Of a DNA stretch of 64,000 nt, positions 5,901 through 64,000 are shown piece after piece (within the stretch, counting starts at the first letter, position 1; every line of letters begins with the position of its first letter). A program made the translations under genes and the position numbers. The notes below the pieces were generated by a model, which saw only the letters and a list, made by a program, of their open reading frames with translations, made no database searches and had not been told where the DNA came from. This stretch comes from Candidatus Edwardsbacteria bacterium RifOxyA12_full_54_48 (lineage in GTDB: Bacteria > Edwardsbacteria > AC1 > EtOH8). The stretch is taken from contig MFFN01000004.1 of NCBI GenBank assembly GCA_001777915.1, forward strand, positions 617,744 to 681,743, written 5' to 3'.

Positions 5901-6067
5901 CCCGGTCTTATTTATCCTTGATTTTAAAGGGGGTAAAGAGTTATAATAAATGTTCAAATCAACATGGATTCCCGATTCCTCGGGAATGACAATCGACATT
6001 TTTATATATGATCCGCGAAAATCCGTGGCCAATTAATTTAAGCAACAATAATTGCGAGGGAATTCAA

Positions 6068-8569: not shown

Positions 8570-8960
8570 ACCGGCCACAGAGATTTTTTATATTGTAGGG
8601 GCGAAAGGTCTTTCGCCCGGACCTCATTACCAGGCAATACAGTCATTCCCGTGCCGACGGGAATCCATGGGACCAGCCCCTTTTTAACCACCAAGACACC
8701 AAGGCACAGAGATTTTTGTCACCCTGAGTTTTCCTTCTGTCTGGCAGGATGAGTGCCTTCGCCGTAGCTGCGGCACTCGAGGTAGCCAATTATAAAAGCG
8801 AAGGCGAAATGGGTGACGATAACGCCATTTCAACCACAGAGGGCACAAAGAAAACATTATCGTAGGGCGGATCGCGATCCGCCCAGGTTCTCCGCCTGCC
8901 AAGGCAGGTCATTCCGGTGCAGACGGGAATCCAGGGCCAACATTTTTATAATTTCAATAA
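8570..8960. repeat. Intergenic tract with three or more copies of the dispersed mosaic repeat family, minus orientation relative to the 57.6-59 kb copies
   Basis: Hairpins 'gtcattcccgtgccgacgggaatcca' and 'gtcattccggtgcagacgggaatcca'. 'ttaaccaccaagacaccaaggcacagagattttt' is the reverse complement of 'aaagtctttgtgccttagtgtcttggtggttaa' at 57.99 kb. Also a strong hairpin gggcgaaag-gt-ctttcgccc. Confidence 0.7.
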
Positions 8961-8975
8961 TCAGATAGAGCGAAG

Positions 8976-9944
8976 ATGCGATTTCCCAAGGGCAGGTCAA
9001 GCCTCCAGAACGCCAAACTTGAATTCGTCCACCTGGACAACATTTTGGCCGACAATAAAAAAGAGCGGGCCAGCAAGATCTCCGGATACCTGGAGATCAT
9101 CTATCCCGACATGGTCCAGCTGCTGTATCTCAAGAAGGGCGAGCCGGTGAACGCCGGGCATTTCTCCCGCACCGAACGCAAGCAGATCTCCATCTCCGAG
9201 GTGATAGATAAGGCCAAAAAATCCACCACCGGCACGGTCTCCATCTACGAGACGCCGGAGGAGCTGGTGGACATGATGCTGGCCGTCTTCAGCGTCAAGC
9301 CGGTTTTCAAGAACCTGGACCTGTCCAATGTGGAACCGGAAAAGTTGTTCGAGAAGCTGACCTCGGTCAAGTTCGACGGCTTTATGGAGATCCGGCGGGG
9401 GGTGGATATCTCCTACGTCCGATTCAAGGAGGGGGCGCCGGTCTCCGGCTATTTCACCTGGAAGGTGGAGGGCATTACCCCCGACCTGCTGAAGGCGGCC
9501 CTCAAGGCTGCGGCCACCGCCCCCGGGGCGGTGATCGTGGACGCCTATGACAAACTGCCGGTGCTGGCCGAGCATGCCAGCCCCGCCCAGATAGAGCTGT
9601 TCGTCAAGGCCATGAACAAGCTGATGGCCGAAATGCGCAACATCGCCGGCCCCACCCTGGTCAGCAAGACCATCGCCTCCTCGAAGGAAGCGGCCTCGGT
9701 GCACTATCCCTTCCTCAAGGACTTCGATTCCGGAGACGAGATCAAGGGCGAGGGCAAGATCGTGACCACCTCCGAGGAGCTGGGCAAGGGATTTGCCGAA
9801 TGGATGGATAATTTCGTCGACTCCTTCCGGATAGTGCTGGGCAAGCGCCTGGACGGGATAGTGCAGAACGCCCTGAAGGATTTCCGCTTCGCCCTCAAGG
9901 CCTCCAGCTTCGGACGGTACTCCAAGCTCAAGGATCTGCTCTAA
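8976..9944 (+). CDS. Hypothetical protein with two DUF4388-like repeats
   Basis: Two repeats of a 'G.L(E/M)I...(P)D..QLL...K.G.PV.(A)G(H/Y)F' pattern (GYLEIIYPDMVQLLYLKKGEPVNAGHF and DGFMEIRRGVDISYVRFKEGAPVSGYF) resembling DUF4388. No catalytic motif. Confidence 0.3.
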   Translation: MRFPKGRSSLQNAKLEFVHLDNILADNKKERASKISGYLEIIYPDMVQLLYLKKGEPVNAGHFSRTERKQISISEVIDKAKKSTTGTVSIYETPEELVDMMLAVFSVKPVFKNLDLSNVEPEKLFEKLTSVKFDGFMEIRRGVDISYVRFKEGAPVSGYFTWKVEGITPDLLKAALKAAATAPGAVIVDAYDKLPVLAEHASPAQIELFVKAMNKLMAEMRNIAGPTLVSKTIASSKEAASVHYPFLKDFDSGDEIKGEGKIVTTSEELGKGFAEWMDNFVDSFRIVLGKRLDGIVQNALKDFRFALKASSFGRYSKLKDLL

Positions 9945-11314: not shown

Positions 11315-12448
11315 ATGGCAAAGAAGATCATCAAAAAGACCGTCCAGCCGGCCGCCAAAAGTTCCGGCCAGCGCAAAGTCCGGGTGGCCATCATCGGGGT
11401 GGGCAACTGCGCCTCCTCCTTCGTCCAGGGCGTTCATTATTACCGCAACGCCAAGCCGGGCGACAAGGTCCCCGGCCTGATGCACGTCAACCTGGGCGGC
11501 TATCACATCTCGGACATCGAGTTCTCGGCCGCCATCGACATCGACAAGAACAAGGTGGGCAAGGACCTGGCCACCGCCATCTACACCAAGCCCAACAACA
11601 CCTTCAAGTTCTGCCAGGTGCCCAAGAGCGGGATCACCGTCCAGCGCGGCATGCTGCACGACGGTCTGGGCAAGTATCTGTCCCAGATCATCCAGAAGGC
11701 CCCGGGCTCCACGGTGGACATCGTCAAGCTGCTGCAGGACACCAAGACCGACGTGGTGGTCAGCTACCTGCCGGTGGGCTCGGAGATGGCCACCAAATGG
11801 TATGTGGAGCAGATACTGGAGGCCAAGTGCGCCTTTGTCAACTGCATTCCGGTGTTCATCGCCCGCGAGCAGTACTGGTCCAACCGCTTCAAGAAGGCCG
11901 GGGTGCCCTGCATCGGAGACGACATCAAGTCGCAGGTGGGGGCCACCATCACCCACCGGGTGCTGACCCGCCTGTTCATGGACCGGGGGGTCAAACTGCA
12001 GAAGACCTACCAGCTGAACTTCGGCGGCAACACCGACTTTCTGAACATGCTGGAGCGGGAGCGGCTGGAGTCCAAGAAGATCTCCAAGACCAACGCCGTC
12101 ACCTCCATGCTGGACTACAAGATGGATCCCGACGACATCCATGTCGGCCCGTCGGATTACGTGCCCTGGCTGCTGGACCGGAAATTCTGCCACATCAAGA
12201 TGGAGGGCCAGACCTTCGGCGACGTGCCCCTGAACCTGGACATGAAGCTGGAAGTATGGGATTCCCCCAATTCGGCCGGGGTGGTGATCGATGCGGTGCG
12301 CTGCGCCAAGCTGGCCCTGGACCACAAGCTCTCCGGGACCATGCTGGAGCCCTCCAGCTACTTCATGAAATCGCCCATGGTCCAGGTGCCGGACGACCAG
12401 GCCAAGAGGAACGTGGAAGAGTTCATCAAGAAACTGGGGCGGAAATAA
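11315..12448 (+). CDS. ino1: myo-Inositol-1-phosphate synthase (MIPS)
   Basis: '[23 protein letters not shown]...' is a Rossmann NAD-binding start. Motifs such as 'SYLPVGSE' and 'NGSPQNTFVPG-like' of MIPS are present, at ~377 aa length. The annotated long ORF 10655..12448 is an artefactual fusion; the true start is ATG 11315. Confidence 0.8.
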
Positions 12449-12463
12449 ACTTGCTTTGAACGA

Positions 12464-12495
12464 GGGTTACTACGAGTGTGTGCTCGTAGTAACCC
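12464..12495. other. Perfect 13-bp inverted repeat (gggttactacgag-tgtgtg-ctcgtagtaaccc) at the junction between ino1 and the AT-rich island
   Basis: Read directly from the sequence. It sits 16 bp after the ino1 stop. There is no T-run, so it is not a classical intrinsic terminator. Confidence 0.6.
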
Positions 12496-12520
12496 TAACA
12501 ATGAGAGTGAGGGATCTGTA

Positions 12521-12787
12521 ATGGAAATTAAAATCGGCGCAGATGAGCTTATTCTTTGGCTAAGGAAAACCAATAACGCCGTAGGCAGAAACAATAAAGA
12601 TTTAGGCAAAGAAATACGACAACAAATTGAAAGCCTTGGCGGTATTTTAATCAACGAAGATGTTGATGTACATTGGTCCAATGAAGGTCATAATATTGGA
12701 GATACGAATTTACCGAAAACAGCAGCACAGTACACAATAGATACAAGTAAATTGTGCAAACTATATGAATGGCTAACCACCTTATAA
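12521..12787 (+). CDS. Hypothetical small protein (88 aa) in the AT-rich island
   Basis: ORF with GAGGGA RBS 7 nt upstream of ATG 12521. Low GC. No recognisable motif. Confidence 0.3.
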   Translation: MEIKIGADELILWLRKTNNAVGRNNKDLGKEIRQQIESLGGILINEDVDVHWSNEGHNIGDTNLPKTAAQYTIDTSKLCKLYEWLTTL

Positions 12788-12884
12788 CGATTAAGTAATT
12801 TATTTGGCAATCCAATGTATCCAATAGTCGAAAAAATGCTCGTAAAAAATAAAGAGGTGCTGTTTAATAAAAAAAGGAAGTATC

Positions 12885-13739
12885 ATGAATACAAAAACCA
12901 TCTTTTTATGCTTCTCATTTTTTACCTATTCGTTACTTTTTGCACAAAGTAATATGGATATATTGGGACCAAAACCCAAACCAATAGAAAATGATACTTC
13001 TACCGGGCCACATTATGATAGTGATAAGCAGAGGCCATCACAAAAGAATAAAAGTTTAACAATTGTTACTCCCAAGTTGTATTGTAATTCAGAAATAATT
13101 GAAAAGGAAAAAATAAAACAGATAATAAATATTGTAAAAAAAGACATATATCAAGTTTATCCAGAATTAAATAAAAAATTAGCTGGTAAAAGCGATCTTG
13201 AAAAAGAAGCTTACTTAGAAACAGAGGATGGAAAAAATTATGTTACAGATTTAAAAGAACGAAGATCTGATATTATTAATTCTTCATTTCTATTTAAATT
13301 AGAATCTTCACTCCCCGATTATGACCCCAGTATTAATGCTTTTGAAATATCTATCAAAGATTATCTATCAATTGATGATAGTTATACAAGTATTCAAAGC
13401 AGCAAAAGCAACAAAATATTCTATACAAACACAATAAATGCTATTTGGTGTAACGGGCTGCCTATAAAAATAAAATCGTTTCGTGGGGTATACTACTCCG
13501 TATTACGGATTAATCCTGGCTCTAAAGCAACAGCACTTATGTTGGAAAGAAACAAACATAACATTCATATTTATTTTGGGTTTAGATTAAGCGGGAAACT
13601 TAAGAAACTGCCGTATACTTCACTTCATAATGATGATATAGTGTGGGAAAGCTATGCTATGGCTAAAGATATGGTTATATTGTTGGTAGATTCAAAAACG
13701 GACAAAGTAGTATTTTCCAGAATGTATCATACAAAATAA
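12885..13739 (+). CDS. Hypothetical secreted protein (284 aa) in the AT-rich island
   Basis: Signal peptide MNTKTIFLCFSFFTYSLLFAQ. Asn/Lys/Ser-rich. ~30% GC versus ~63% in flanking genes. Confidence 0.45.
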   Translation: MNTKTIFLCFSFFTYSLLFAQSNMDILGPKPKPIENDTSTGPHYDSDKQRPSQKNKSLTIVTPKLYCNSEIIEKEKIKQIINIVKKDIYQVYPELNKKLAGKSDLEKEAYLETEDGKNYVTDLKERRSDIINSSFLFKLESSLPDYDPSINAFEISIKDYLSIDDSYTSIQSSKSNKIFYTNTINAIWCNGLPIKIKSFRGVYYSVLRINPGSKATALMLERNKHNIHIYFGFRLSGKLKKLPYTSLHNDDIVWESYAMAKDMVILLVDSKTDKVVFSRMYHTK

Positions 13740-13741
13740 GT

Positions 13742-14428
13742 ATGTCTATAAAAACAAACTGTTTGGAAGCAAGAAAAAGAAAGTCAATTCCGATTATTAG
13801 AAAAGGCCTTTTCATAAGCTTTGAGGGCATCGAGGGCTGCGGGAAAAGCACCCAGGCCAAACTATTGGAGAGCTGGCTCAAGGCCCAGGGCTTTAAGGTA
13901 GTACTGACCAGGGAACCCGGCGGCCCTTCCATTTCCGAGAAGATAAGAAAGATCCTGCTGGACAGCCGCAACCAGGGGATGTCCGACCTCACCGAGCTGC
14001 TGCTGCTGCAGGCCTCCCGGGTCCAGCACCTGGCCCAGGTGATAGTGCCGGCCCTGAAGGCCGGGAAGGTGGTGATCTGCGACCGTTTTGCCGACTCCTC
14101 CACCGCCTACCAGGGCTACGGCCGGGGCCTGGACCTGAAGATGGTGGGTGAGCTCAACGATTTTGCGGTGGACGGCCACTGGCCCCAGCTGACGCTGGTG
14201 CTGGACCTGCCGGTGGAGAAGGGTTTCTTAAGGGCCCAAGGCCGGCGCCGCAGCTTGGACCGGATGGAGACCCAGGCCGTAAAATTTCACAAAAGGGTCA
14301 GACAGGGTTTTAAGGCCATAGCCAAAGCAGATCCAGGGCGGGTCAAACTTTTGGATGGCAGCCAGCCGCCGGAGGTGATCCACGCCGCGGTGCGGCAGCT
14401 GGCGCTGAGCGCCATGAAAAAAAGATAA
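13742..14428 (+). CDS. tmk: Thymidylate kinase
   Basis: 'GLFISFEGIEGCGKSTQAKLL' P-loop, 'DRF' motif and 'SSTAYQG' lid. The first ~20 codons are AT-rich and unlike Tmk N-termini, so the true start is uncertain (possibly TTG 13763). Confidence 0.85.
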   Translation: MSIKTNCLEARKRKSIPIIRKGLFISFEGIEGCGKSTQAKLLESWLKAQGFKVVLTREPGGPSISEKIRKILLDSRNQGMSDLTELLLLQASRVQHLAQVIVPALKAGKVVICDRFADSSTAYQGYGRGLDLKMVGELNDFAVDGHWPQLTLVLDLPVEKGFLRAQGRRRSLDRMETQAVKFHKRVRQGFKAIAKADPGRVKLLDGSQPPEVIHAAVRQLALSAMKKR

Positions 14429-17668: not shown

Positions 17669-18526
17669 ATGAAATTCTTAGGCGAGAAGGGCGTTCGGAG
17701 AGTGCTGGCGGGGATAGCTTTTTCGGCTATCTCGGCCCTGCTCCTTATCGCCCTTTTTATCATCAAGGAGGGCCTGCCGTTCATCATCAGCTACGGCCCC
17801 CTAAAATTCCTGTTTTCCTCCGACTGGCAGCCCCAGGCCGGAAGGTTCGGGATCTGGCCCATGATCGTGGCCTCGGTGTGGGTGACCCTGGGGGCCATGC
17901 TGCTGGGGGCCCCGTTGGGGGTGGCCTGCGCCGTCTTTTTGACGGAATTCGTTCCCCGCCGGGTGATGGGGGTGATCAAGCCCACCATCGAGCTGCTGGC
18001 CGGCATTCCCTCGGTGGTCTACGGGTTCATGGGGGTGATGGTGCTGGCCCCGCTGATCCGCTCCCAGCTGGGCGGGCCGGGGCTGTCGGTGCTGGCCGGG
18101 GCCATCATCCTGGGCGTGATGATCCTGCCCACCATCATCAGCATCTCCATCGATTCCATCCAGTCGGTGCCCAATTCTTACCGGGAGGGCTCCTTGGCTT
18201 TGGGCGCCACCCATTGGCAGACCACCTATATGGTGACGGTGCCGGCCGCCAAATCCGGCATCATCGCGGCCATCATCCTGGGCATGGGCCGGGCCATCGG
18301 CGAGACCATGGCGGTGATCATGGTGGCCGGCAACGCGGTCAAGATCCCCATATCGGCCCTGGACTCGGTCCGGACCCTGACCGCCAACATCGCCCTGGAG
18401 ATGGGATACGCCACCGGGCAGCACCGCCAGGCCCTGTTCGCCACCGGGGTGGTGCTGCTGGTGATAATCATGATCCTGAACTCCCTGGCCGGAATGGCCA
18501 TCAGGAAGAAGGCGGGTAAAAGATGA
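17669..18526 (+). CDS. pstC: Phosphate ABC transporter permease
   Basis: ABC permease EAA-like motif region. Order after pstS. Confidence 0.85.
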   Translation: MKFLGEKGVRRVLAGIAFSAISALLLIALFIIKEGLPFIISYGPLKFLFSSDWQPQAGRFGIWPMIVASVWVTLGAMLLGAPLGVACAVFLTEFVPRRVMGVIKPTIELLAGIPSVVYGFMGVMVLAPLIRSQLGGPGLSVLAGAIILGVMILPTIISISIDSIQSVPNSYREGSLALGATHWQTTYMVTVPAAKSGIIAAIILGMGRAIGETMAVIMVAGNAVKIPISALDSVRTLTANIALEMGYATGQHRQALFATGVVLLVIIMILNSLAGMAIRKKAGKR

Positions 18527-19359
18527 GAGTGCCGCCCAAATATACCCAGATGGCAGCCAAGCTGGTGATGGGCCTGGCCACCCTGGCCACCCTGGCCATC
18601 CTGGTGTTCATCATCCTGTTCGTGCTGGAGAAGGGCCTTCCGGTGGTGGGATTCAAATTCCTGCTGACCAGCCCCCAGGACATGGGAAAGGCCGGGGGCA
18701 TCTTCCCGGTGGTGGTCGGGACCATCCTTTTGACCCTGGTGGCCATAGCCATCGCCACGCCATTGGGGGTGGGCACCGCCATCTACCTGACCGAATACAC
18801 CAGGGAGAGCCGGGCCACCAAGATCATCCGTTTCGGGGCCGACTGCCTGGCCGGGATCCCCTCCATCATCTTCGGCCTTTTCGGCTTCATCTTCTTCGTC
18901 ACCATACTACAAATGGGGTGGTCCATCCTGTCCGGCGGACTGACCCTGGCCTTCATGATCCTGCCCACCATCATCCGGACCTCGGAGGAGGCCATCAAAT
19001 CGGTGCCCAATTCCTTCCGGGAGGTGTCGTTCTCTCTGGGGGCCACCCGCTGGGAGACCGTCCAGAAAGTGGTGCTGCCCAGCGCCCTGCCGGGCATCGT
19101 CACCGGGGTGATGCTGGGGGTGGGACGCTCCATCGGCGAGACCGCCGCGGTGATCTTCACCGCCGGCTCCTCTCTCCGGATGCCGTCCTCGCTGATGGAC
19201 TCGGTCCGCACCATGTCGGTGCATTTCTACATCCTGGCCCGGGAGGGCATCTCCACCGAGAACGCCTACGGCACCGCGGCCATCCTGGTGATCACCATTC
19301 TGCTGATAAACCTGACGGCCTACGGACTGATGAACCGCTTCGTGGCCAGGAACAACTGA
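18523..19359 (+). CDS. pstA: Phosphate ABC transporter permease
   Basis: Paralogous permease overlapping pstC by 4 bp. 'SLGATRWETVQKVVLP' is a PstA-type motif. Confidence 0.85.
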   Translation: MRVPPKYTQMAAKLVMGLATLATLAILVFIILFVLEKGLPVVGFKFLLTSPQDMGKAGGIFPVVVGTILLTLVAIAIATPLGVGTAIYLTEYTRESRATKIIRFGADCLAGIPSIIFGLFGFIFFVTILQMGWSILSGGLTLAFMILPTIIRTSEEAIKSVPNSFREVSFSLGATRWETVQKVVLPSALPGIVTGVMLGVGRSIGETAAVIFTAGSSLRMPSSLMDSVRTMSVHFYILAREGISTENAYGTAAILVITILLINLTAYGLMNRFVARNN

Positions 19360-19363
19360 TAGC

Positions 19364-20128
19364 ATGATGAGCAACGAAATAAAAATATCGGCCCAGGACC
19401 TCAAGGCCTTCTACGGGCCGGAGCAGCTGCTGATGTCCCTCAACATGGACATCCAGGCCAACCAGATACTGGGCATCATCGGGCCTTCCGGCTCAGGCAA
19501 GACCACCTTCCTGCGCAGCCTGAACCGGCTCAACGACCTGGTGCACGGCTTCCGGATCGAGGGCCGCATCCTGCTGGACGGGCAGGACATCTATCACCCC
19601 AACTCCGACGTGGTGGCCCTGCGCAAACGGGTGGGAATGCTGTTCGCCCTGCCGGTGCCCCTGCCCAAGAGCATCTACGAGAATGTGGTCTACGGACCCA
19701 GGCTGTCGGGCGCAGGAGACCGGAAAAAACTCGATCAGCTGGTGGAGGCCAGCCTGAAGTCGGCCTTCATCTGGGACGAGGTCAAGGACCGTCTGAATTC
19801 ACCGGCCATGCGCCTGTCCGGAGGACAGCAGCAGCGGCTGTGCCTGGCCAGGATCCTGGCCCAGGAGCCGGAGGTGATCCTGCTGGACGAACCTTGCTCC
19901 GGGCTGGACCCCATCTCCACCGCCAAGATCGAGGAGGCCCTGACTATCCTCAAGCAGAAGTACACCGTCATCCTGGTCACCAACAACACCAAGCAGGCGG
20001 CCCGGGTGGCCGACCAGACCGCCTTCTTCCTGATGGGCTCGCTTATCGAATACGGACCGACCAAAGATCTGTTCACCGTGCCAAATGACAAAAGGACCAG
20101 CGATTACATCACCGGACGTTTCGGGTAA
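19364..20128 (+). CDS. pstB: Phosphate ABC transporter ATP-binding protein, copy 1
   Basis: Walker A GPSGSGKTT, signature LSGGQQQRLCLAR, Walker B ILLDEP. Ends 'DYITGRFG', which is typical of PstB. Confidence 0.9.
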   Translation: MMSNEIKISAQDLKAFYGPEQLLMSLNMDIQANQILGIIGPSGSGKTTFLRSLNRLNDLVHGFRIEGRILLDGQDIYHPNSDVVALRKRVGMLFALPVPLPKSIYENVVYGPRLSGAGDRKKLDQLVEASLKSAFIWDEVKDRLNSPAMRLSGGQQQRLCLARILAQEPEVILLDEPCSGLDPISTAKIEEALTILKQKYTVILVTNNTKQAARVADQTAFFLMGSLIEYGPTKDLFTVPNDKRTSDYITGRFG

Positions 20129-20250
20129 AGAGGTACCTGCCCACTAAACACACGAAAGGTTATTAACCGGTCAAAACAAGATATAAGAACAATCCATTCG
20201 GCATGATACAGATCGAAAGATCCACCTATTTCCGCTTTTAACGAAATCAA

Positions 20251-21006
20251 ATGAACAACAAGATAGAAATAAATCGGCTCAACCTTTATTACGGCAAATT
20301 CCAGGCCCTTAAGGCGGTGGACATGCCGATAAGGGAGAATTCCATCACCGCCCTGATCGGGCCTTCGGGTTGCGGCAAATCCACCCTGCTGCGCTGCCTC
20401 AACCGGATGAACGACCTGATCGCCGGGGTCAGGATAGACGGACGGGTGCTGCTGGACGGCAGGAATATCTACCGTCACGGCCTGAACGTGCCGGAGCTGA
20501 GAAAAAGGGTGGGCATGGTGTTCCAGCGGCCCAATCCCTTTCCCCATTCGGTGTTCGACAACGTGGCCTACGGGCTGAAGGTGGCCGGGATCAGTGATAA
20601 GAACCGCATTTCCGAAACAGTGGAGCGCAGCCTCAAAGGGGCCTGGCTGTGGGAGAATTTAAAGGATAGATTGGACCGTCCGGCCCTGGAACTGCCGTTG
20701 GACCAGCAGCAGCGTTTATGCATCGCCCGTTTGCTGGCGGTGGAGCCGGAGGTCATTCTGATGGACGAGCCTTGCTCGGCCCTGGATCCCATCGCCACCA
20801 TGAAGGTGGAGGAGCTGATGCTGGATCTGTGCAAACGTTACACCATCGCCATCGTCACCCACAACATGCAGCAGGCGGCCCGGGTATCGGAATATTCCGG
20901 CTACATGCTGCTGGGCGATATGGTGGAGTTCGACCTGACCGCCAATATCTTCACCAACCCCAGGGACGCCCGCACCCAGGATTACATCACCGGCCGCTAC
21001 GGGTGA
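20251..21006 (+). CDS. pstB: Phosphate ABC transporter ATP-binding protein, copy 2
   Basis: [26 protein letters not shown]. Ends 'DYITGRYG'. A second tandem pstB. Confidence 0.9.
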
Positions 21007-44671: not shown

Positions 44672-44727
44672 ATGATTGGCAATGGTTTTGCAACGCTCAA
44701 GGGCTGGCTGTCGGCCTAAGTATTGTA

Positions 44728-53803: not shown

Positions 53804-54335
53804 TCCGCCGGACAAAATAATAAAATGCCTTGGGTCATCAAGAGGCGACGAAACAACGCGGTGCAATATTCAGGCTGCTTAGGGCCGGGCCCAAACCAGC
53901 CGGGATTGAAAACAGAATCTTTTGTCTGGTAGGAGATTTACTTTAAAGTGTGACATTTAATAAAATATGTGCCATAATGTCGCAAATTTATTAAATCTAT
54001 AAATAACAATACCTTAACATATCTAATCCTTTCGACAATAAGAGCCAGTGAGACATAATGTCTCATTGGCTTTTGTGTTTTAATATAAAGGCAACATATA
54101 TAAATTATAACATATTGTGATGCATCGTCTTGATTAAATAGAAAAAGAATTGCTTCTTGGCATGAATATTGGAAACCTTAATAAATGACAGTCATTTTAA
54201 AGTCATTCAAGAAACAGCTAATTTGAAAGCAGATGAAACTCAGTCTCCGGTGGTTCCCACGGGAATCGTTCCAGATGTTTGATCACTTAGCGGTACCAAA
54301 GGCCCATCCAGCTTCCATGACAAAGGTGGCATAAA
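53804..54335. other. AT-rich (~30% GC) 530-bp non-coding tract. No ORF; palindromes present.
   Basis: Near-perfect 13-bp inverted repeat gccagtgagacat|aatgtctcattggc at ~54.04 kb. Also 'tgacagtcattttaaagtcattca' direct repeats. The base-composition break against flanking 60-65% GC is sharp. Confidence 0.6.
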
Positions 54336-55580
54336 ATGGAGCAGAATATTTATCCCGTGATATTTGTCCCCGGGATCATGGAGACGGAGTTGTCCGGCCC
54401 CTGCCCGTTGGACCACCGGGCGGCCTGCCATCCGACCTTCGACAAGATGACGGCCGATCTTGATACCGTGAAGCTGGACGACCATGGCGATTACCACCGC
54501 CCGCCGAACCGGCGGATATGCCGGAATGAGGTGTTCTCTTTGGTTTACGGCGAGATGATTGCCGCGCTGCGGGAGAGCCTGCCGCTGGATCAGGAAGAAT
54601 GCGCCAGGGTCTATGTCTTTCCCTACGACTGGAGGCGCTCCATCAGCCATAACGCCGCCCGGCTGGCGGATTTCGTGGAGCGGATCATCCGCAGCAGCCA
54701 GGCCCATCCCCCGTACCGCCGGCGGGGGATCAAGCCGGACAAGGTGAATATCGTCGGCCACAGCGTGGGGGGATGTCTGGCCAAGCATTACGCCACGGCG
54801 CTGTTGGGCGAGGGCCGGGTAAATCGGATGGTGATGCTGGCTTCCCCGCTACGGGGCTCATTGTGCGCCTTGAAGCACCTGATAACGGGCGAAACCTGGT
54901 TCTTCGACTGGTTGAACGGCAAAAGTCAGCGGCGCTATGCCCGGACCCTTCCCGGGATATACCATCTGCTGCCCTATGACGGCTTTGCCAATCCAGAGGA
55001 GAAGCTGATGTGGCCCAGCCCGGCGGCAGAGAGAAGGGGCCAGCCGGTCAATATCTTCGATCCCTCCGGCTGGCAGGACAATGTGGCCGCCCAGGTCGGG
55101 CCGGAGGTGTTGGCCAGCCACCTGGACAATGCCTACAATTACTACCGCAACGCCCGGGATTTCTCCCCGGAGTTCCGAAAGAACGTCCTGATGGTTTACG
55201 GCAAGGGGGAGCGGACCCTGCGTGAGGTCAATATCGGCAGCCGCCAGCCGGTGGAGTACAACTTTCCCCGGGAGGATGGTTGCGGCGCCATCGGCGACGG
55301 CACGGTGCCGGCGGTCAGCACCTACAGCCAGGGCATCTACCAAGCCTGTGTCACCAAGAAAAAGATGGGTGACTGGGAGCTGGACCTGGGTCGGGTGGCC
55401 GGTTTCCATGCCTCTTTCTGCGCCTACGACCTGGTCCAGGACCTGGTGATATCCTTCCTGACCGGAAGGGTTATCAGGACGGTGCGGAGGGAATTCAAGC
55501 TGACCGAGATAGAACAACTGCCCAAGTTCACTCCGGACCAGGTGGACAAGCTGGACCGGGAGCCCATCTGCCGGTTCTGA
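54336..55580 (+). CDS. LCAT-like / PGAP1-like alpha/beta-hydrolase (putative lipase or phospholipase/acyltransferase)
   Basis: 'YPVIFVPGIMETEL' N-terminal lid, 'FPYDWR' (the YDWR motif of the LCAT family), the nucleophile elbow 'VGHSVGG' (GxSxG), and a distal 'GDGTVP' Asp/His region. Confidence 0.55.
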   Translation: MEQNIYPVIFVPGIMETELSGPCPLDHRAACHPTFDKMTADLDTVKLDDHGDYHRPPNRRICRNEVFSLVYGEMIAALRESLPLDQEECARVYVFPYDWRRSISHNAARLADFVERIIRSSQAHPPYRRRGIKPDKVNIVGHSVGGCLAKHYATALLGEGRVNRMVMLASPLRGSLCALKHLITGETWFFDWLNGKSQRRYARTLPGIYHLLPYDGFANPEEKLMWPSPAAERRGQPVNIFDPSGWQDNVAAQVGPEVLASHLDNAYNYYRNARDFSPEFRKNVLMVYGKGERTLREVNIGSRQPVEYNFPREDGCGAIGDGTVPAVSTYSQGIYQACVTKKKMGDWELDLGRVAGFHASFCAYDLVQDLVISFLTGRVIRTVRREFKLTEIEQLPKFTPDQVDKLDREPICRF

Positions 55581-55753
55581 TACCGGATGGCGGGCTGTCC
55601 CTGTGCCGGCAGAGGAGTTAAGCGCTGCATCCTGCCCGTGCTGGGGGCCATTCCCCCCAATCGGGCGGACTCCGCAGTCGGGGCTGGTCGAGCCTGATGA
55701 TCGACCGGAGAACCCGGTTGATAAAAACCAACATATAAACGAAAGGAAAAAGC

Positions 55754-56089
55754 ATGAACGGCAATCCCGAAGAGGAAAAAACCAAGGACGCCCCGGCGGC
55801 GGCCAGGATCGTCAAGGGACCGGGGCTTTTTGAGACCACCCGGGGGAATGCCTCCGAGGCCTATCTCATCCTGCGCAGCAAGGGCAAGACCGTCCCATAT
55901 GCCTGGGTGAAGTCAGCGCAGGAATCCAGAAAAAAAAGGCAGGACGAGCTGGGGATCAAACTGAAAGAGAAAAGCCTGGACGCCTTCCCCATATTGCGGC
56001 AATGGGAGAGTGCGCTGGAGAAGGAACGGTTTTATTACGGGCTTCGGGCCCTGTTCGATCTGGAGCAGAACGGGGAGACCAAGCTGTAG
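55754..56089 (+). CDS. Hypothetical protein (111 aa)
   Basis: ORF with no recognisable motif. Part of the orphan cassette. Confidence 0.3.
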   Translation: MNGNPEEEKTKDAPAAARIVKGPGLFETTRGNASEAYLILRSKGKTVPYAWVKSAQESRKKRQDELGIKLKEKSLDAFPILRQWESALEKERFYYGLRALFDLEQNGETKL

Positions 56090-56151
56090 ACAGGCAACAG
56101 GGGACAGGGATCAGGACGGCAAGCATCAATGAATATAATGGAGGCTCCACC

Positions 56152-56787
56152 ATGGCATCTTCAGGCAATCAAGCGCAAAAGTACAAATGCCCCTGCGGCA
56201 AGAGTTATTACACCGTCCACAGCTACTACGATCAGGCCGGCTTGTTTGACGAGCATTGGGAGATGAACTGCTGCCGATGCAAACAGCGCTACCAGCTCAG
56301 TTCGCTCCTCAAGGAGAGCGGCCGGGGCCTCAACGAGGCCTATCTCTGGGCCCCAATAAACATCTTCAGCGAGCTGGCCATCGTGGAGGACCAGTTGCAC
56401 CGGGCCCAGGGCGATATGCTGGCCCTGGCCCGGGAGCTGTATCTGGATCGCTGGCTTGGGCACTTCTCCGGGGTTAAGGCCAGAAAAGATATCTGGCGGC
56501 GCCTGACCGACGGCGGGAAACGGGAGCCCAGCTACCGGCTGTTCGTTCGTTCGGCGCCCCGGGACAATCTGGAGGACTATCTGCAGAGATACTTCCACTA
56601 TTTCAACGTGGACCATATCCTGGAGAAGCTGGGGGTGCGGGACATCCGGCTGGATGAGATGAAAGGCCGGATCGCCGAACTGCAGACCGGCCGGGAAAGG
56701 GCCCAGGGCCTGCTGAGGATGGAAGGTTTTGCTGGACGGAGCGAATACCGGTGGGGATCATCAATAAAAACCGATAGGCGTGTATAG
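56152..56787 (+). CDS. Hypothetical protein with N-terminal Cys4 zinc-ribbon-like motif (212 aa)
   Basis: 'KCPCGKSYY…NCCRCKQRY' looks like a C-x-C…C-x2-C ribbon. The rest is helical/charged. Start taken at Met 56152. Confidence 0.3.
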   Translation: MASSGNQAQKYKCPCGKSYYTVHSYYDQAGLFDEHWEMNCCRCKQRYQLSSLLKESGRGLNEAYLWAPINIFSELAIVEDQLHRAQGDMLALARELYLDRWLGHFSGVKARKDIWRRLTDGGKREPSYRLFVRSAPRDNLEDYLQRYFHYFNVDHILEKLGVRDIRLDEMKGRIAELQTGRERAQGLLRMEGFAGRSEYRWGSSIKTDRRV

Positions 56788-56789
56788 TA

Positions 56790-57100
56790 GGGTCGGGATT
56801 CAGCCCCGACCCCGGCTATCATGTCATCCCGGTTCCGCAGCAAGTGCGGGATAAATTCCGACAGGGATGACGGGATTTAACTACCAAGACACTAAGACGC
56901 CAAGAATTTTTACTTAATACCGGACTAAGGTGTCATTCCTGCCCATCCCTCACTCCCTCACCGCTGCGGGGAGAGCCTGCACTGAGGACGGCAGTTATTT
57001 TTGCCGACCGAAGTGGAGGCCGATAGGCAGTGAGGGGTCAGGATAGGCGGGGAACCGGGGGCCGTCCCACATCTCTGACGCGGATATAACCACAGGAGAC
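56790..57100. repeat. Repeat tract with 'gtcatcccg…cgggat' hairpins, a 'ccaagacactaagacgccaag…ttacttaata' module, and a GC-rich imperfect palindrome
   Basis: Shares 'cactaagac…ttacttaata' with 21.17 kb and 20.14 kb. 'ggtgtcattcctgccc' is a half-hairpin. Confidence 0.55.
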
Positions 57101-57106
57101 AGGGAA

Positions 57107-57376
57107 ATGTATAGCATCGAGGTAAGCGAAAGGGAAAAAATGTTGGGCTACGCCCTGAGCCCCGTTCCGAATCCCGCCGGTAAACTGCCGGGGGAGCCGG
57201 AGCAGGTCCTGGCGGTGGCCTATACACTGGACGAAGAGAACCTGATCGTCAAAAAGCTGTATCCCATGGGGGGTTGCCGGTATTGGCATTTGAAAAAGGC
57301 CAGCGATGACTGGAGAACGGTGAGCAATGTGGAGCCCGACCCGGGAAAGGCCATCGAGCGGGCCAGGCTAGGATGA
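57107..57376 (+). CDS. Hypothetical protein (89 aa)
   Basis: ORF with a GGAG-like RBS (acaggagacagggaaATG). No motif recognised. Confidence 0.3.
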   Translation: MYSIEVSEREKMLGYALSPVPNPAGKLPGEPEQVLAVAYTLDEENLIVKKLYPMGGCRYWHLKKASDDWRTVSNVEPDPGKAIERARLG

Positions 57377-57599
57377 CCGCCTCCTCACTCCATCCAATTT
57401 GCCTGCCGGCACCAGTTGCTTGAGACCATCGGACAGGGGATGATTTTTTTATGCCGGGATGAAGGCCTTGGCCGGGCCTGCGGCCAGATCAAAGGCCGGA
57501 AGCGCAAGGCTAAAAAATCTCCCGGGGGTTCAGCGGCAAAACAGTTTTCATTTGACAAGCCATATCCAAAGCGGTATATTAATACTTGTAAAAGTATTT

Positions 57600-58060
57600 T
57601 TAAACCGCTTTTTTAACGCCTCGGCTCAGGGGAAACCGATGTTCAACCAACCCAGTATTAAGTTCAAAGATTAAAGAATAAAAGCCTTTGTGTATTTTGT
57701 GCACCTTTCGACTTGGCTCCGGGAATTCTTTGTGGTTAAAAGGTACCTGAGATTGCTTCGGCTGTGAATCTTTGGTGCCATCCCCGCAATGACACGGAAG
57801 GCAGGCAGAAAGCCGGTAAATAATGAAAGCCTTTGTGTCTTTGTGCTTAAAAGATTCTAAGGCTTGGCGGGTAGGCTGCCGGGCTCAGAATGACGAAAGC
57901 AATGACATAGGGCCGGAAATATCAGTGAAAATCCGTATTCCATTAAGCCTGGATTCCCGACTTCTCGGGAATGACACCTGGTGCAGGTTAAAAGAGTAAA
58001 AGTCTTTGTGCCTTAGTGTCTTGGTGGTTAATTCCGGTTTAAAATTAAAAATAAAGGAGC
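57600..58060. repeat. Non-coding tract containing direct-repeat unit X1 (~57730-57845) and several mosaic-repeat modules (hairpin 57951-57976)
   Basis: 'ttgtggttaaaaggtacctgagattgcttcggctgtgaatctttggtgccatccccgcaatgacacggaaggcaggcagaaagccgg…aagcctttgtg' is ~80% identical to 58769-58890. Hairpin 'ggattcccgacttctcgggaatgaca' is followed by 'cctggtgcaggttaaaag…ctttgtgccttagtgtcttggtggttaa'. Confidence 0.7.
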
Positions 58061-58064
58061 AGCC

Positions 58065-58469
58065 ATGATAGACCGCATGAACGAAGCCGTGATCAAGGCC
58101 CTGCTGGAGGCCATGCCGGGCGAGATCTCGGTGATCGACCACAACGACGAGGTGATCGGCTGGAACAAGCATGACACCCGGCTGTTCCATAGGCCCATGG
58201 ACAGCATGGGCATCAACTTCCGCAGCTGCCACCCCAAAAGCAGCCTGGCCAAGGTGGAGCAGATCGTGGAGGAGATGAAAAGCGGGAAGCGAGACAGCGC
58301 CAGGTTCTGGATAGACCTGCCGCTGGGACCCAACCAGGAGAAGCACAAGGTGCTGATAGAATTCTTCGCCCTGCGTGACCAGGATAAAAAATACCTGGGC
58401 TGCCTGGAGCACACCATGGATGTCCAGTACATCCGGGAGCTGGAGGGCGAGAAGCGGCTGCTGTCGTAA
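58065..58469 (+). CDS. Stand-alone PAS-like sensor domain protein (134 aa)
   Basis: 'ISVIDHNDEVIGWNKHDTRLFHRPMDSMGINFRSCHP…' and '…FFALRDQDKKYLGCLEHTMDVQYIRELE' follow the PAS fold pattern (ligand pocket, then a beta-sheet ending in D-V-T/Q-x-R). No output domain. Confidence 0.45.
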   Translation: MIDRMNEAVIKALLEAMPGEISVIDHNDEVIGWNKHDTRLFHRPMDSMGINFRSCHPKSSLAKVEQIVEEMKSGKRDSARFWIDLPLGPNQEKHKVLIEFFALRDQDKKYLGCLEHTMDVQYIRELEGEKRLLS

Positions 58470-59056
58470 AAGTTCATAAAGCTTAAAGTTTAAAGAATAG
58501 AAGCCTCTGCGTCTCTGCGGTGAAATGACCCTGGATTCCTGCCTTCGCCGGAATGACACGCAGGACAGGTTAAAAGTGAAAAAGTCTTTGTGTCTTTTAT
58601 GCGCTTTGTGGCAAAACCAGTTTAATGTTCAAAGCTTGTCACACTGAGAAGGCATTCGTGCCCTGCAAGTTGAATGTGTGAAGGGGAATTCGGGAAACAT
58701 AATATTGTCGCCCGTTCAACTTGGCAAGAGTAAAGAATTCTCAGGGTGACAACAACCACTCTGCGTTTCGTGGCTAAAAGACACCTGAGATTGCTTCGCT
58801 TGTGAATCTTCGGCGCCATGCTCGCAATGACAAGAAAGGCAGGTACAAAGCCGGAAAAGAATAAAAGCCTTTGTACGCTTTGTGGTTAAAAGGGACCCTG
58901 GATTCCAGCTGGAGTTTATGCTGAATGCAATGAAGTGCTGGAATGACAAACGCATCAGCGTAAAGCTATAAAGTCTCTCTGTGACCCAGTGTCTCTGTGG
59001 CAAAACCTCAGCCCAGAAGTTAAATAAACCGCTCCGGAAAGGGGCGGCCTTTTTTG
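58470..59056. repeat. Non-coding tract with direct-repeat unit X2 (~58769-58890), three hairpin modules and a terminator
   Basis: Hairpins 'ggattcctgccttcgccggaatgaca' and 'ggattccagctgg…gctggaatgaca'. 'ggttaaaagtgaaaaagtctttgtgtcttttatgcgctttgtggcaaaacc' and 'taaagtctctctgtgacccagtgtctctgtggcaaaacc'. Terminator ccgctcc-ggaaa-ggggcgg + ttttttg at 59029-59056. Confidence 0.7.
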
Positions 59057-62689: not shown

Positions 62690-63532
62690 ATGTTTATTAT
62701 GAAAAGATATTTGCTTTTATTTATACTGATTCTATCAGTCTCGCCCATTGTGAATGCCCTGGATTTGAAAGGCACATTTTGGACGGATGAAAGCAATGCA
62801 TATTTTTTCTTTCAAGATACAACAGTGCTTTTTGAGCATGGGGGGCGTGCTGATAAATTCAAATATTTAATAAAAAATGATAGCCTATACCTTTTTAAAA
62901 ACTACTGGATTGATAAGGACAGTATTAAGCATATTCAATCGTATGGTTTGATATGTGGAATAAAATCAAAGGATTCCTTGTCATTACGGCCATACTTGCC
63001 CGTAGATAATGAATGGGAAAAAGATATCATTGATCCAGTATTAACTGATACAATGAAAACATCAAGGTTTTACAACGTAGAAAAATATTATGATCCATCC
63101 TTGCTTGTCTTTGATAAATTATATTTCATGTTGAATGAATATGACTATAAAGTGGAAATCATAATAGATAAGAACAGAAACTATTATTACCATGGAAAAG
63201 GCGATATTAAAAATAAGGGGTATTACCAAGGCATAATTAGCGATTCGCTTTTTAAAGTACTGGGGAATTTGCTTGAGAAAAGTTGTTTAAGACTAATTAC
63301 ATTAGAGCCTGTTTGTTATGATATTGACACCACAGGAAAAGTATCAAATATTATATTTGTTAAAGATGGTCCCGATTATACATTAAATTTATATGTAGAT
63401 AAGGAAATAATCAATCTTCAAGGCAATAGTTTGCCATACGTGGCTAAAAATCTTTTTAATTTTCTTTCCAAGTCTAATCGTGATGTTAAATTGTTAAAAT
63501 CAAAGAGTGCAAAAAAAGCTTTTGGCCAATAA
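62690..63532 (+). CDS. Hypothetical secreted protein in an AT-rich island (280 aa)
   Basis: Signal peptide MKRYLLLFILILSVSPIVNA. Tyr/Asn/Lys-rich. ~30% GC. Confidence 0.4.
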   Translation: MFIMKRYLLLFILILSVSPIVNALDLKGTFWTDESNAYFFFQDTTVLFEHGGRADKFKYLIKNDSLYLFKNYWIDKDSIKHIQSYGLICGIKSKDSLSLRPYLPVDNEWEKDIIDPVLTDTMKTSRFYNVEKYYDPSLLVFDKLYFMLNEYDYKVEIIIDKNRNYYYHGKGDIKNKGYYQGIISDSLFKVLGNLLEKSCLRLITLEPVCYDIDTTGKVSNIIFVKDGPDYTLNLYVDKEIINLQGNSLPYVAKNLFNFLSKSNRDVKLLKSKSAKKAFGQ

Positions 63533-63620
63533 AACTATCTACATATTTATAACTTTTAGTTTTCGTGTGTTTTGTGGGAAGATTTCTCTGCGTAGAAGAT
63601 AATATTAAGGAGGCTCTATC

Positions 63621-64000
63621 GTGAGGCTCAATTATTACTGGCGGGAGGCCCTGGCCGGCCTGAAGCGGGCCAAGCTGATGACCTTTTTGTCGGTATCCAG
63701 CATCACCTCGGCCCTGTTCATCCTGGGCTCGTTCCTGCTGGTGACCCTGAATTTCCAGAGGGCCATCGACCAGGTGAAAGGCAAGTTCGAGATCCAGGCA
63801 TTTTTAAGGGACAATGTGGCCAACAGCCAGGCCCTGGTGATAGGCAGCCGCATCCGGGACATCCCCGGGATACAGGAGACGGAATACATCTCCAAGCAGG
63901 AGGCCCTAAAGCAGTTCCGGCAGGAGCTGGCCGACAAGGCCGACCTGCTGAATGCCATCGAGACCAACCCCCTGCCCCAGTCTTTCAAGGTCAAGCTCAA
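63621..64000 (+). CDS. ftsX: Cell-division ABC-transporter permease-like protein FtsX (3'-partial; runs off the window end). Not in the ORF track.
   Basis: GTG start 10 nt after AAGGAGG. 'NYYWREALAGLKRAKLMTFLSVSSITSALFILGSFLLV…' has the FtsX N-terminal TM1 and periplasmic loop. Translated by hand. Confidence 0.65.
   Translation, partial: MRLNYYWREALAGLKRAKLMTFLSVSSITSALFILGSFLLVTLNFQRAIDQVKGKFEIQAFLRDNVANSQALVIGSRIRDIPGIQETEYISKQEALKQFRQELADKADLLNAIETNPLPQSFKVKL

Follow-up and report, generated by a model that had tools for sequence, protein, structure and literature searches.

Enzymes of the LCAT/LPLA2 (PF02450) and PGAP1-like (PF07819) families are among the closest described relatives of a lipase encoded in Candidatus Edwardsbacteria bacterium RifOxyA12_full_54_48, within a stretch of 64,000 nucleotides (GenBank assembly GCA_001777915.1, contig MFFN01000004.1, positions 617,744 to 681,743 of the forward strand) that is called the window below and whose own numbering is used throughout. 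The lipase gene opens a block of four same-strand genes (54336-57376), which the original prediction had put forward as an orphan cassette and a candidate accessory or defence island. The lipase shares with these two families the GxSxG nucleophile elbow, the FPYDWR motif, the GDGTVP loop bearing the aspartate, and an intact catalytic triad. It differs from them in being presumably cytoplasmic and without a signal peptide, in its length of about 410 amino acids (aa), and in belonging to a tight bacterial subfamily.

Among solved structures, the best relative of the lipase by sequence profile is Tle4 (TplE) of Pseudomonas aeruginosa, which forms with its immunity protein Tli4 the type VI effector-immunity complex 4R1D (PMC4832377). 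The lipase, unlike that system, has no type VI secretion system (T6SS) genes nearby and no periplasmic immunity gene, and the likeness is confined to the catalytic core. Phospholipases also serve as effectors in anti-phage systems, as does the patatin-like CapV of CBASS. The idea of a phospholipase that is restrained until a signal arrives is common to such systems and to the locus considered here; however, at this locus a cyclase, a sensor, and any other partner that would define such a system are missing, and the hydrolase families are different.

With regard to regulation, the nearest described arrangement is the sigma54-dependent operon that lies beside the gene of its enhancer-binding protein (NtrC/PspF/RtcR type). 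In relatives of the window genome, a gene with Sigma54_activat and HTH_8 domains lies immediately upstream in the same manner, and palindromes precede a conserved TGGCAY-N5-WTGN element by about 100 and 200 bp. On the other hand, the -12 element lacks GC, the activator of the relatives carries N-terminal Ser/Thr kinase, TPR, and GAF regions, and the window genome has lost the activator altogether.

The comparisons reported here make it probable that the locus is a vertically inherited, regulated lipase cluster of the chromosome, specific to Edwardsbacteria, and not an island. This reading is well supported as an evolutionary description and weakly supported as to biochemical mechanism.

Genes and Inheritance of the Lipase Locus

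As predicted, the block contains four open reading frames (ORFs) on the plus strand, namely the lipase gene (54336-55580; 414 aa), ORF2 (55754-56089; 111 aa), ORF3 (56152-56787; 211 aa, corrected from 212 aa), and ORF4 (57107-57376; 89 aa), all of which are in the ORF list and are also called in public assemblies. A longer start of ORF3, an ATG at 56002, runs into ORF2 and is without homologue support. The four are genuine genes under purifying selection, with ratios of nonsynonymous to synonymous divergence (dN/dS) against orthologues of 0.20-0.25 for the lipase, 0.05-0.11 for ORF2, 0.26-0.38 for ORF3, and 0.25-0.28 for ORF4. The small ORFs, whose coding potential had been in question, are real because they are conserved as proteins, at dN/dS values of 0.05-0.38.

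The DNA around nine closer lipase homologues and around one more locus, L012, was compared (related loci are cited by such labels), and the presence or absence of each gene was recorded in a tblastn matrix. The lipase occupies one chromosomal place in all related loci. A GGDEF protein, an M20 peptidase, a 185-aa protein, and a propeller protein are encoded upstream of it, and PAS_10, CheC, FolC, HD, and Hexapep/FtsX genes follow downstream where the contig extends that far. In 10/10 related loci, ORF3 is found together with the lipase, always downstream, and nine of the ten also have ORF2. The latter is missing in L006, where a radical-SAM gene stands between the lipase and ORF3 and ORF2 has been lost; synonymous sites are saturated against this locus. 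ORF4 is found in four loci only, those of the window, L046 (88%), L047 (57%), and L006 (60%), and L002, with a lipase of 100% identity, is without it.

Outside the clade, lipase orthologues of 46-56% identity (Deltaproteobacteria, Nitrospirae, and unassigned contigs) each have different neighbours, and none has ORF2, ORF3, or ORF4 beside it. In the wider lipase family, a given neighbour family is met in 2-3 of 55 metagenome loci at most, and the neighbours are mostly housekeeping genes. Loci of the ORF2 family contain neither the lipase nor ORF3 apart from the Edwardsbacteria locus; no conserved partner of that family was found over about 24 lineages with heterogeneous neighbours, and its sole within-family synteny is in Nitrospiraceae. 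The four genes, predicted to be a unit, therefore do not travel together: a trio is fixed at one locus of the clade, ORF4 is patchy, and outside the clade the lipase and ORF2 are each found singly.

Signs of mobility were also looked for. There is no integrase among the called genes of the block. No relatives of ORF2 or ORF3 turned up in scans of viral contigs, and the lipase gave five remote partial hydrolase matches only. The GC content of the four genes and their GC content at third codon positions (GC3) fall inside the range of the flanking conserved genes (GC3 of 0.72-0.81 vs 0.63-0.90); the composition is native. The synonymous divergence (dS) from L012 is alike for the lipase, ORF2, and ORF3 (0.50-0.65) and tracks the divergence of neighbouring genes. 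The fixed locus, the native GC3, the similar dS, and the lone occurrence of the genes elsewhere argue for vertical inheritance rather than a mobile cassette. The data fit a clade-specific trio of lipase, ORF2, and ORF3 inherited at a fixed site, and not a mobile four-gene cassette; the conserved syntenic context of the block in relatives speaks in itself against an island.

The gaps between the genes of the block measure 62-319 bp. No plus-strand terminator is predicted from 54076 to 59029, which would allow transcription to read through the block, and the first strong intrinsic terminator 3′ of it in the terminator scan lies just ahead of CheC (59029-59056, plus strand).

The Lipase and Its Relatives

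The lipase matches the Pfam families LCAT (PF02450; 34.6 bits against a gathering cut-off of 21) and PGAP1 (PF07819; 28.1 bits against 24.3), and it aligns to positions 87-218 only of the 392 in the LCAT profile. The motifs PVIFVPGIM, FPYDWR, GHSVGG, and GDGTVP are all found in the 414-aa protein. VIFVPGIM had been described as the lid; we take it to be the N-terminal strand/oxyanion-loop motif of LCAT-type folds. H142-S143-x-G145-G146, G320-D321, and H358 are invariant across 18 homologues with identities down to 25%. By its sequence, the protein is an LCAT/PGAP1-type alpha/beta-hydrolase, as had been proposed, in which the invariance of S143, D321, and H358 indicates an intact Ser143-Asp321-His358 triad. 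Its predicted activity is that of a lipase/phospholipase or an acyltransferase. No N-terminal signal sequence or hydrophobic segment was seen on reading the sequence, and the enzyme is presumably cytoplasmic.

The lipase subfamily is tight, with about 25 clusters of 41-100% identity, beyond which lies a large and distant LCAT-like family of 25-30% identity, some of whose members are fused to FHA domains. A hypothetical protein of Candidatus Edwardsbacteria RIFOXYD12_FULL_50_11 matches the window lipase with 100% identity. Searched against the PDB, the subfamily profile matched 4r1d_A (Tle4) best (9e-11), followed by human LCAT (5e-6), LPLA2 (3e-5), and then small bacterial lipases. The Tle4 match spans about 105 residues around the nucleophile, in addition to a common N-terminal PVIFxPGIMGT, and the Pfam Tle3 model scores 17.8 bits on the lipase, well under its cut-off of 27. 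As judged from these alignments, the resemblance to Tle4 is probably that of a common catalytic core rather than membership of the Tle4 family.

In an unrelated lineage (L135, 2088-12006), a lipase orthologue of 52% identity is flanked by a patatin phospholipase, a DUF6765 protein, and a protein with an FGE-sulfatase domain. It is followed by a 1578-aa Pkinase-AAA_16-GAF protein, the second giant kinase seen beside the lipase subfamily. The similarity of this protein to the Edwardsbacteria activator described below is limited to collinear kinase and GAF regions at 25-26%, and a conserved sensor-lipase pair is a lead suggested by this arrangement, not proof.

Proteins Encoded by ORF2 and ORF3

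ORF2, ORF3, and ORF4 gave only noise-level matches in searches of Pfam, NCBIfam, PADLOC, and PHROGs. ORF2 is not, however, the orphan that it had seemed. It belongs to an unnamed family of about 93 aa with 45 cluster representatives at the 50% level from many phyla. Genomic loci number 34 and come from at least 8 phyla, including Dadabacteria, Chloroflexota, Planctomycetota, Nitrospirota, Verrucomicrobiota, and Acidobacteriota. The family motif is DWExxYxKECFYYGIRxLxELERxGKTKL, and R59, W84, E91, F93, Y94, G96, R98, L100, and G107 are invariant in a 12-sequence alignment. In the clade, ORF2 has a disordered, lineage-specific N-terminal extension of 18-22 aa. Its AlphaFold2 model (pLDDT 85) consists of a small N-terminal element and a long helical hairpin. 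Certain members of the family hold 2-5 copies of the unit.

The predicted Cys4 ribbon of ORF3 was borne out: the cysteines C13, C15, C40, and C43 are invariant and are located in a three-stranded ribbon, after which comes a helical domain (AlphaFold2 model, pLDDT 72). Just 7 homologue clusters, all of 57-97% identity, were found among 5.8 billion proteins. ORF3 is thus predicted to be a Cys4 zinc-ribbon and helical protein that is confined to Edwardsbacteria. The structural comparison proposed for the small proteins gave no fold match in the PDB: Foldseek returned none at E<=0.001 for the model of ORF2 (TM-score <=0.5) or for that of ORF3 (TM-score <=0.25), and profile-to-PDB sequence searches with ORF2 and ORF3 found nothing.

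The Upstream Region and the Larger Cluster in Relatives

The lipase gene is preceded by an AT-rich intergenic and presumably regulatory region, the leader, of 532 bp (53804-54335), whose GC content of 28-35% against about 56% for the window agrees with the sharply AT-rich segment of about 530 bp noted originally. The leader is homologous to the DNA that, in relatives, separates a sigma54-activator gene from the first small gene of a larger cluster. In 7 related lineages, five genes on the same strand precede that of the lipase, which stands sixth in a co-directional cluster. The first encodes a protein of 1579-1589 aa with Pkinase, a P-loop region, TPR, GAF, Sigma54_activat, and HTH_8. The second encodes a secreted proline-rich peptide of about 47 aa (MKKF...DDDPPPPTTTG...), in which a signal is followed by ADDDPPPPTTTG.NPLPP.PP; its gene (L003 8917-9063, L006 ~9432-9578, L047 8970-9113, L049 8786-8932) lies directly 3′ of the sigma54-like promoter and is left uncalled, or is called on the opposite strand, in several assemblies. 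The third to fifth genes encode a 62-aa protein, a response regulator, and a Cys-rich protein of 55-73 aa, and most of these lineages have a small HNH-like gene 3′ of the lipase. The window, L002, and L012 have neither the activator nor the small upstream genes. No remnant of the HNH-like gene was found in the spacer between the lipase and ORF2, and the leader may retain a faint trace of the secreted-peptide gene near 54217-54264, but a match of E 0.045 in a tiny database is too weak to build on.

Alignment of the leader reveals blocks conserved against L012 and across 7 lineages. One of them is a palindrome, TGTGACA-N22-TGTCGCA (53949-53984, plus strand), whose halves TGTGAC and ATGxCxCA do not vary among 7 lineages and which is a putative operator or enhancer-like site. 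Further downstream is a hairpin with a T-run that resembles an intrinsic terminator (54038-54086, plus strand), with an 18-bp stem and an inner palindrome, GAGACA/TGTCTC. Its pairing is maintained by compensatory changes, from CAGTG/CATTG to CGGTG/CACCG in L012 and from GAGACA/TGTCTC to GTGACA/TGTCAC in L047; in L006, the outer stem is different and a stem is still kept. A sigma70-like match, GTGACA-17-CATAAT (10/12 in the promoter scan), overlaps the palindrome, and together with the conserved hairpin about 60-100 nt on it could alternatively mark a small RNA of about 100 nt conserved in the clade. An Rfam search of 53.5-59.3 kb, which takes in the leader and the repeats described below, gave no match.

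The third element is a sigma54-like promoter, TGGCATGAATATTGG (54158-54172, plus strand), with a perfect -24 element and TTGG instead of TTGC at -12 (consensus TGGCAC-N5-TTGC). All 7 lineages have TTGGCA-N7-TG without change and at the same spacing. The weight of this element comes from its conservation within diverged AT-rich DNA and from its position next to the gene of an enhancer-binding protein in relatives.

Two further observations concern this region and its motifs. A 33-codon upstream ORF that ends at the lipase start was rejected, there being a deletion at that place in L012. Elsewhere in the window, TGGCAATGGTTTTGCA at 44677-44692 is the nearest match to the canonical sigma54 -24/-12 consensus (1 mismatch).

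The preferred scheme for the locus is as follows. The stable core consists of the presumably cytoplasmic LCAT/Tle4-like lipase or acyltransferase together with ORF2 and ORF3, which in most relatives are the distal genes of an activator-headed cluster in the order activator, ~47-aa peptide, 62-aa protein, response regulator, Cys-rich protein, lipase, HNH-like protein, ORF2, and ORF3. Transcription probably starts from the sigma54-type promoter, with the palindromic sites upstream of it. In the genomes of the window, L012, and L002, the activator and four small upstream genes have been deleted, and the AT-rich leader would be the surviving regulatory region, now fused straight to the lipase. Signal-dependent transcription would yield an intracellular lipase that may act on membrane glycerophospholipids by hydrolysis or transacylation, and ORF2 and ORF3 may be its non-enzymatic partners in the role of regulator, inhibitor, or adaptor. 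Co-transcription, sigma54 dependence, the lipid substrate, and the roles of ORF2 and ORF3 are parts of this scheme that we infer.

The Strain-Variable Segment and Dispersed Repeats

ORF4 (3 homologue clusters) lies on a strain-variable segment bounded by repeats (56760-57989), as delimited by BLASTN of the window against L002. The two sequences are 98.9% identical over 54000-56759; at 56760-57989, the window sequence is swapped for unrelated DNA in L002 (12425-13741), homology returns at 57990, and the flanks of the swap are 97-99% identical. In place of ORF4, the L002 segment has a 241-aa ORF without a Pfam match, and the swap alters the C-terminus of ORF3, which is 211 aa long in the window vs 201 aa in L002. 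Both breakpoints fall within copies of dispersed repeats, among them the inverted pair 56870-56910/57998-58038. ORF4 is thus an unrelated small gene on a repeat-bounded, strain-variable segment and does not belong to the fixed gene set of the cluster.

Dispersed repeats of short length are densest at 56.8-59.0 kb, in accordance with the dense repeat region that had been placed behind the block, except that ORF4 lies inside the repeat-rich segment and not ahead of it. Structured repeats of families D1-D6, with units of about 27-108 nt that end in ...AATGACA, surround the conserved PAS_10 gene (58065-58469, from Pfam) at 57657-59007. The end of a unit reads ...(G/C)GAATGACA or CGCAATGACA, then AAAGYCTTTGTG...TTGTGGYTAAAAG. 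Copies are present at 56820-56950, 57657-58040, and 58476-59007, with scattered ones at 5965-5991, 8684-8717, and 8908-8939, and in relatives at L046 6050-7560. Similar "AATGAC" hairpin repeats are known from many uncultured anaerobes. Spurious ORFs also arise from the repeats; "LDSRLLGNDT" is an example of the peptides that they encode.

The stretch from ORF3 to PAS_10 is a variable hotspot, in which restriction-modification, NACHT, and ribosomally synthesized and post-translationally modified peptide (RiPP) genes are found in relatives. Radical-SAM genes occur beside tiny ORFs in L006 (11312-12813) and L049 (13125-14707, with SPASM/PqqD); the tiny ORF of L006 encodes a 56-aa peptide ending in ...DPCPGRACCNR. 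From their sequences, these look like maturase-precursor pairs of RiPP type that have been inserted into the variable DNA close to the lipase. Upstream of PAS_10, a near-consensus sigma70-type promoter, TTGACA-17-TATATT (11/12), is present in non-coding DNA at 57552-57580, and about 40-80 nt around it are conserved in L002, L046, L012, and L049.

Alternative Explanations

If the locus served defence or toxin-immunity, the lipase would be a membrane-attacking effector that ORF2 and ORF3, in the role of sensor or immunity proteins, silence or neutralise; the kinase/TPR/GAF-sigma54 sensor of relatives would unleash it, the window version having lost its regulator. Such a role would suit a lipase whose structural relative Tle4 is a lipase toxin and which has an HNH-like gene close by in most relatives. 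One lipase orthologue elsewhere adjoins a C14 caspase-like peptidase, another adjoins a Pol-beta nucleotidyltransferase and an ADP-ribosylglycohydrolase, and that of L135 is near the patatin, the FGE-sulfatase protein, and the 1578-aa kinase-AAA_16-GAF protein. However, these defence-like neighbours are different in every lineage, and no partner recurs over the 55 wider-family loci or the ~24 lineages of the ORF2 family. PADLOC-DB v2 gave 0 matches at E<=0.1 for all four proteins, viral-contig scans revealed no viral or mobile associations, and, both here and in relatives, the genes called up to 10 kb to each side of the block include no T6SS families such as VgrG/PAAR/Hcp. The N-termini of ORF2, ORF3, and ORF4, read from the sequences, are hydrophilic and have no signal peptide or lipobox. 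With the fixed chromosomal position and native composition added, the defence explanation is unlikely, and the original reading as an accessory or defence island is largely refuted.

A related proposal is that lipase-(HNH)-ORF2-ORF3 supplies the effectors of a so far undescribed, inducible programme specific to Edwardsbacteria, sensed through kinase, TPR, and GAF domains and fired through sigma54, of which the window would retain a regulator-less relic. The L135 lipase beside a kinase-AAA_16-GAF giant would be a second, independent pairing in support of it, and we nevertheless hold the proposal to be very improbable. If it were true, a signal such as infection or stress would flood the cell with the phospholipase, a small nuclease, and the secreted proline-rich peptide, and the programme would serve suicide, defence, or developmental lysis under transcriptional gating.

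The four genes might also be functionally unrelated and neighbours only through the close kinship of the genomes, with the lipase as an ordinary enzyme of lipid metabolism. The lipase and the ORF2 family are each found alone in all other phyla sampled, the radical-SAM insertion in L006 separates the lipase from ORF3 with the loss of ORF2, the gaps are as wide as 319 bp, and wider-family neighbours are mostly housekeeping genes. On the other hand, the lipase and ORF3 have stayed together in all ten loci despite heavily rearranged surroundings and the saturation of synonymous sites against L006, and an operon agrees with the strand and order of the genes and with the lack of terminators between them. 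Mere adjacency is improbable as an account of the locus.

Several points weigh against a regulated cluster of functional partners, the reading preferred here. The related-locus sample comprises about 9 lineages, mostly metagenome contigs of unverified taxonomy. Because the searches gave ORF2, ORF3, and ORF4 no homology that bears on function, the partnership of the small proteins with the lipase is drawn from adjacency in a single clade, which may reflect shared ancestry. The gaps of 173 bp between the lipase and ORF2 and of 319 bp between ORF3 and ORF4 could contain internal promoters. With regard to sigma54, the -12 element reads GG, GA, or GT across lineages and never the canonical GC, and the window has no excess of consensus matches with <=2 mismatches. 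TGGCATGAATATTGG is the sole match of the motif scan in the window (1 vs 0.17 expected), and 16/100 shuffles also matched, so that the motif taken alone is not above chance and not compelling. The cognate activator is also absent from the 64-kb window, and because it is missing, current sigma54 control in this genome is doubtful.

Other Features of the Window

Far from the lipase, four tandem plus-strand genes of 250-285 aa occupy 17669-21006, where the pairs 18109-18379/18945-19215 and 19478-20126/20356-21004 are 66-70% identical in nucleotide sequence. These pairs are paralogous duplications and constitute the largest self-similarity in the window. Segments of low GC content are located at 12001-14000 (0.35-0.46) and 63001-64000 (0.40), compared with a window mean of 0.56.

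Implications

The lipase at this locus belongs to a known kind of enzyme and is accompanied by three uncharacterised small proteins. ORF3 defines a family restricted to one phylum. ORF2, which has no model in Pfam, NCBIfam, or PHROG, defines a widespread unnamed family and is a candidate for a new domain family.

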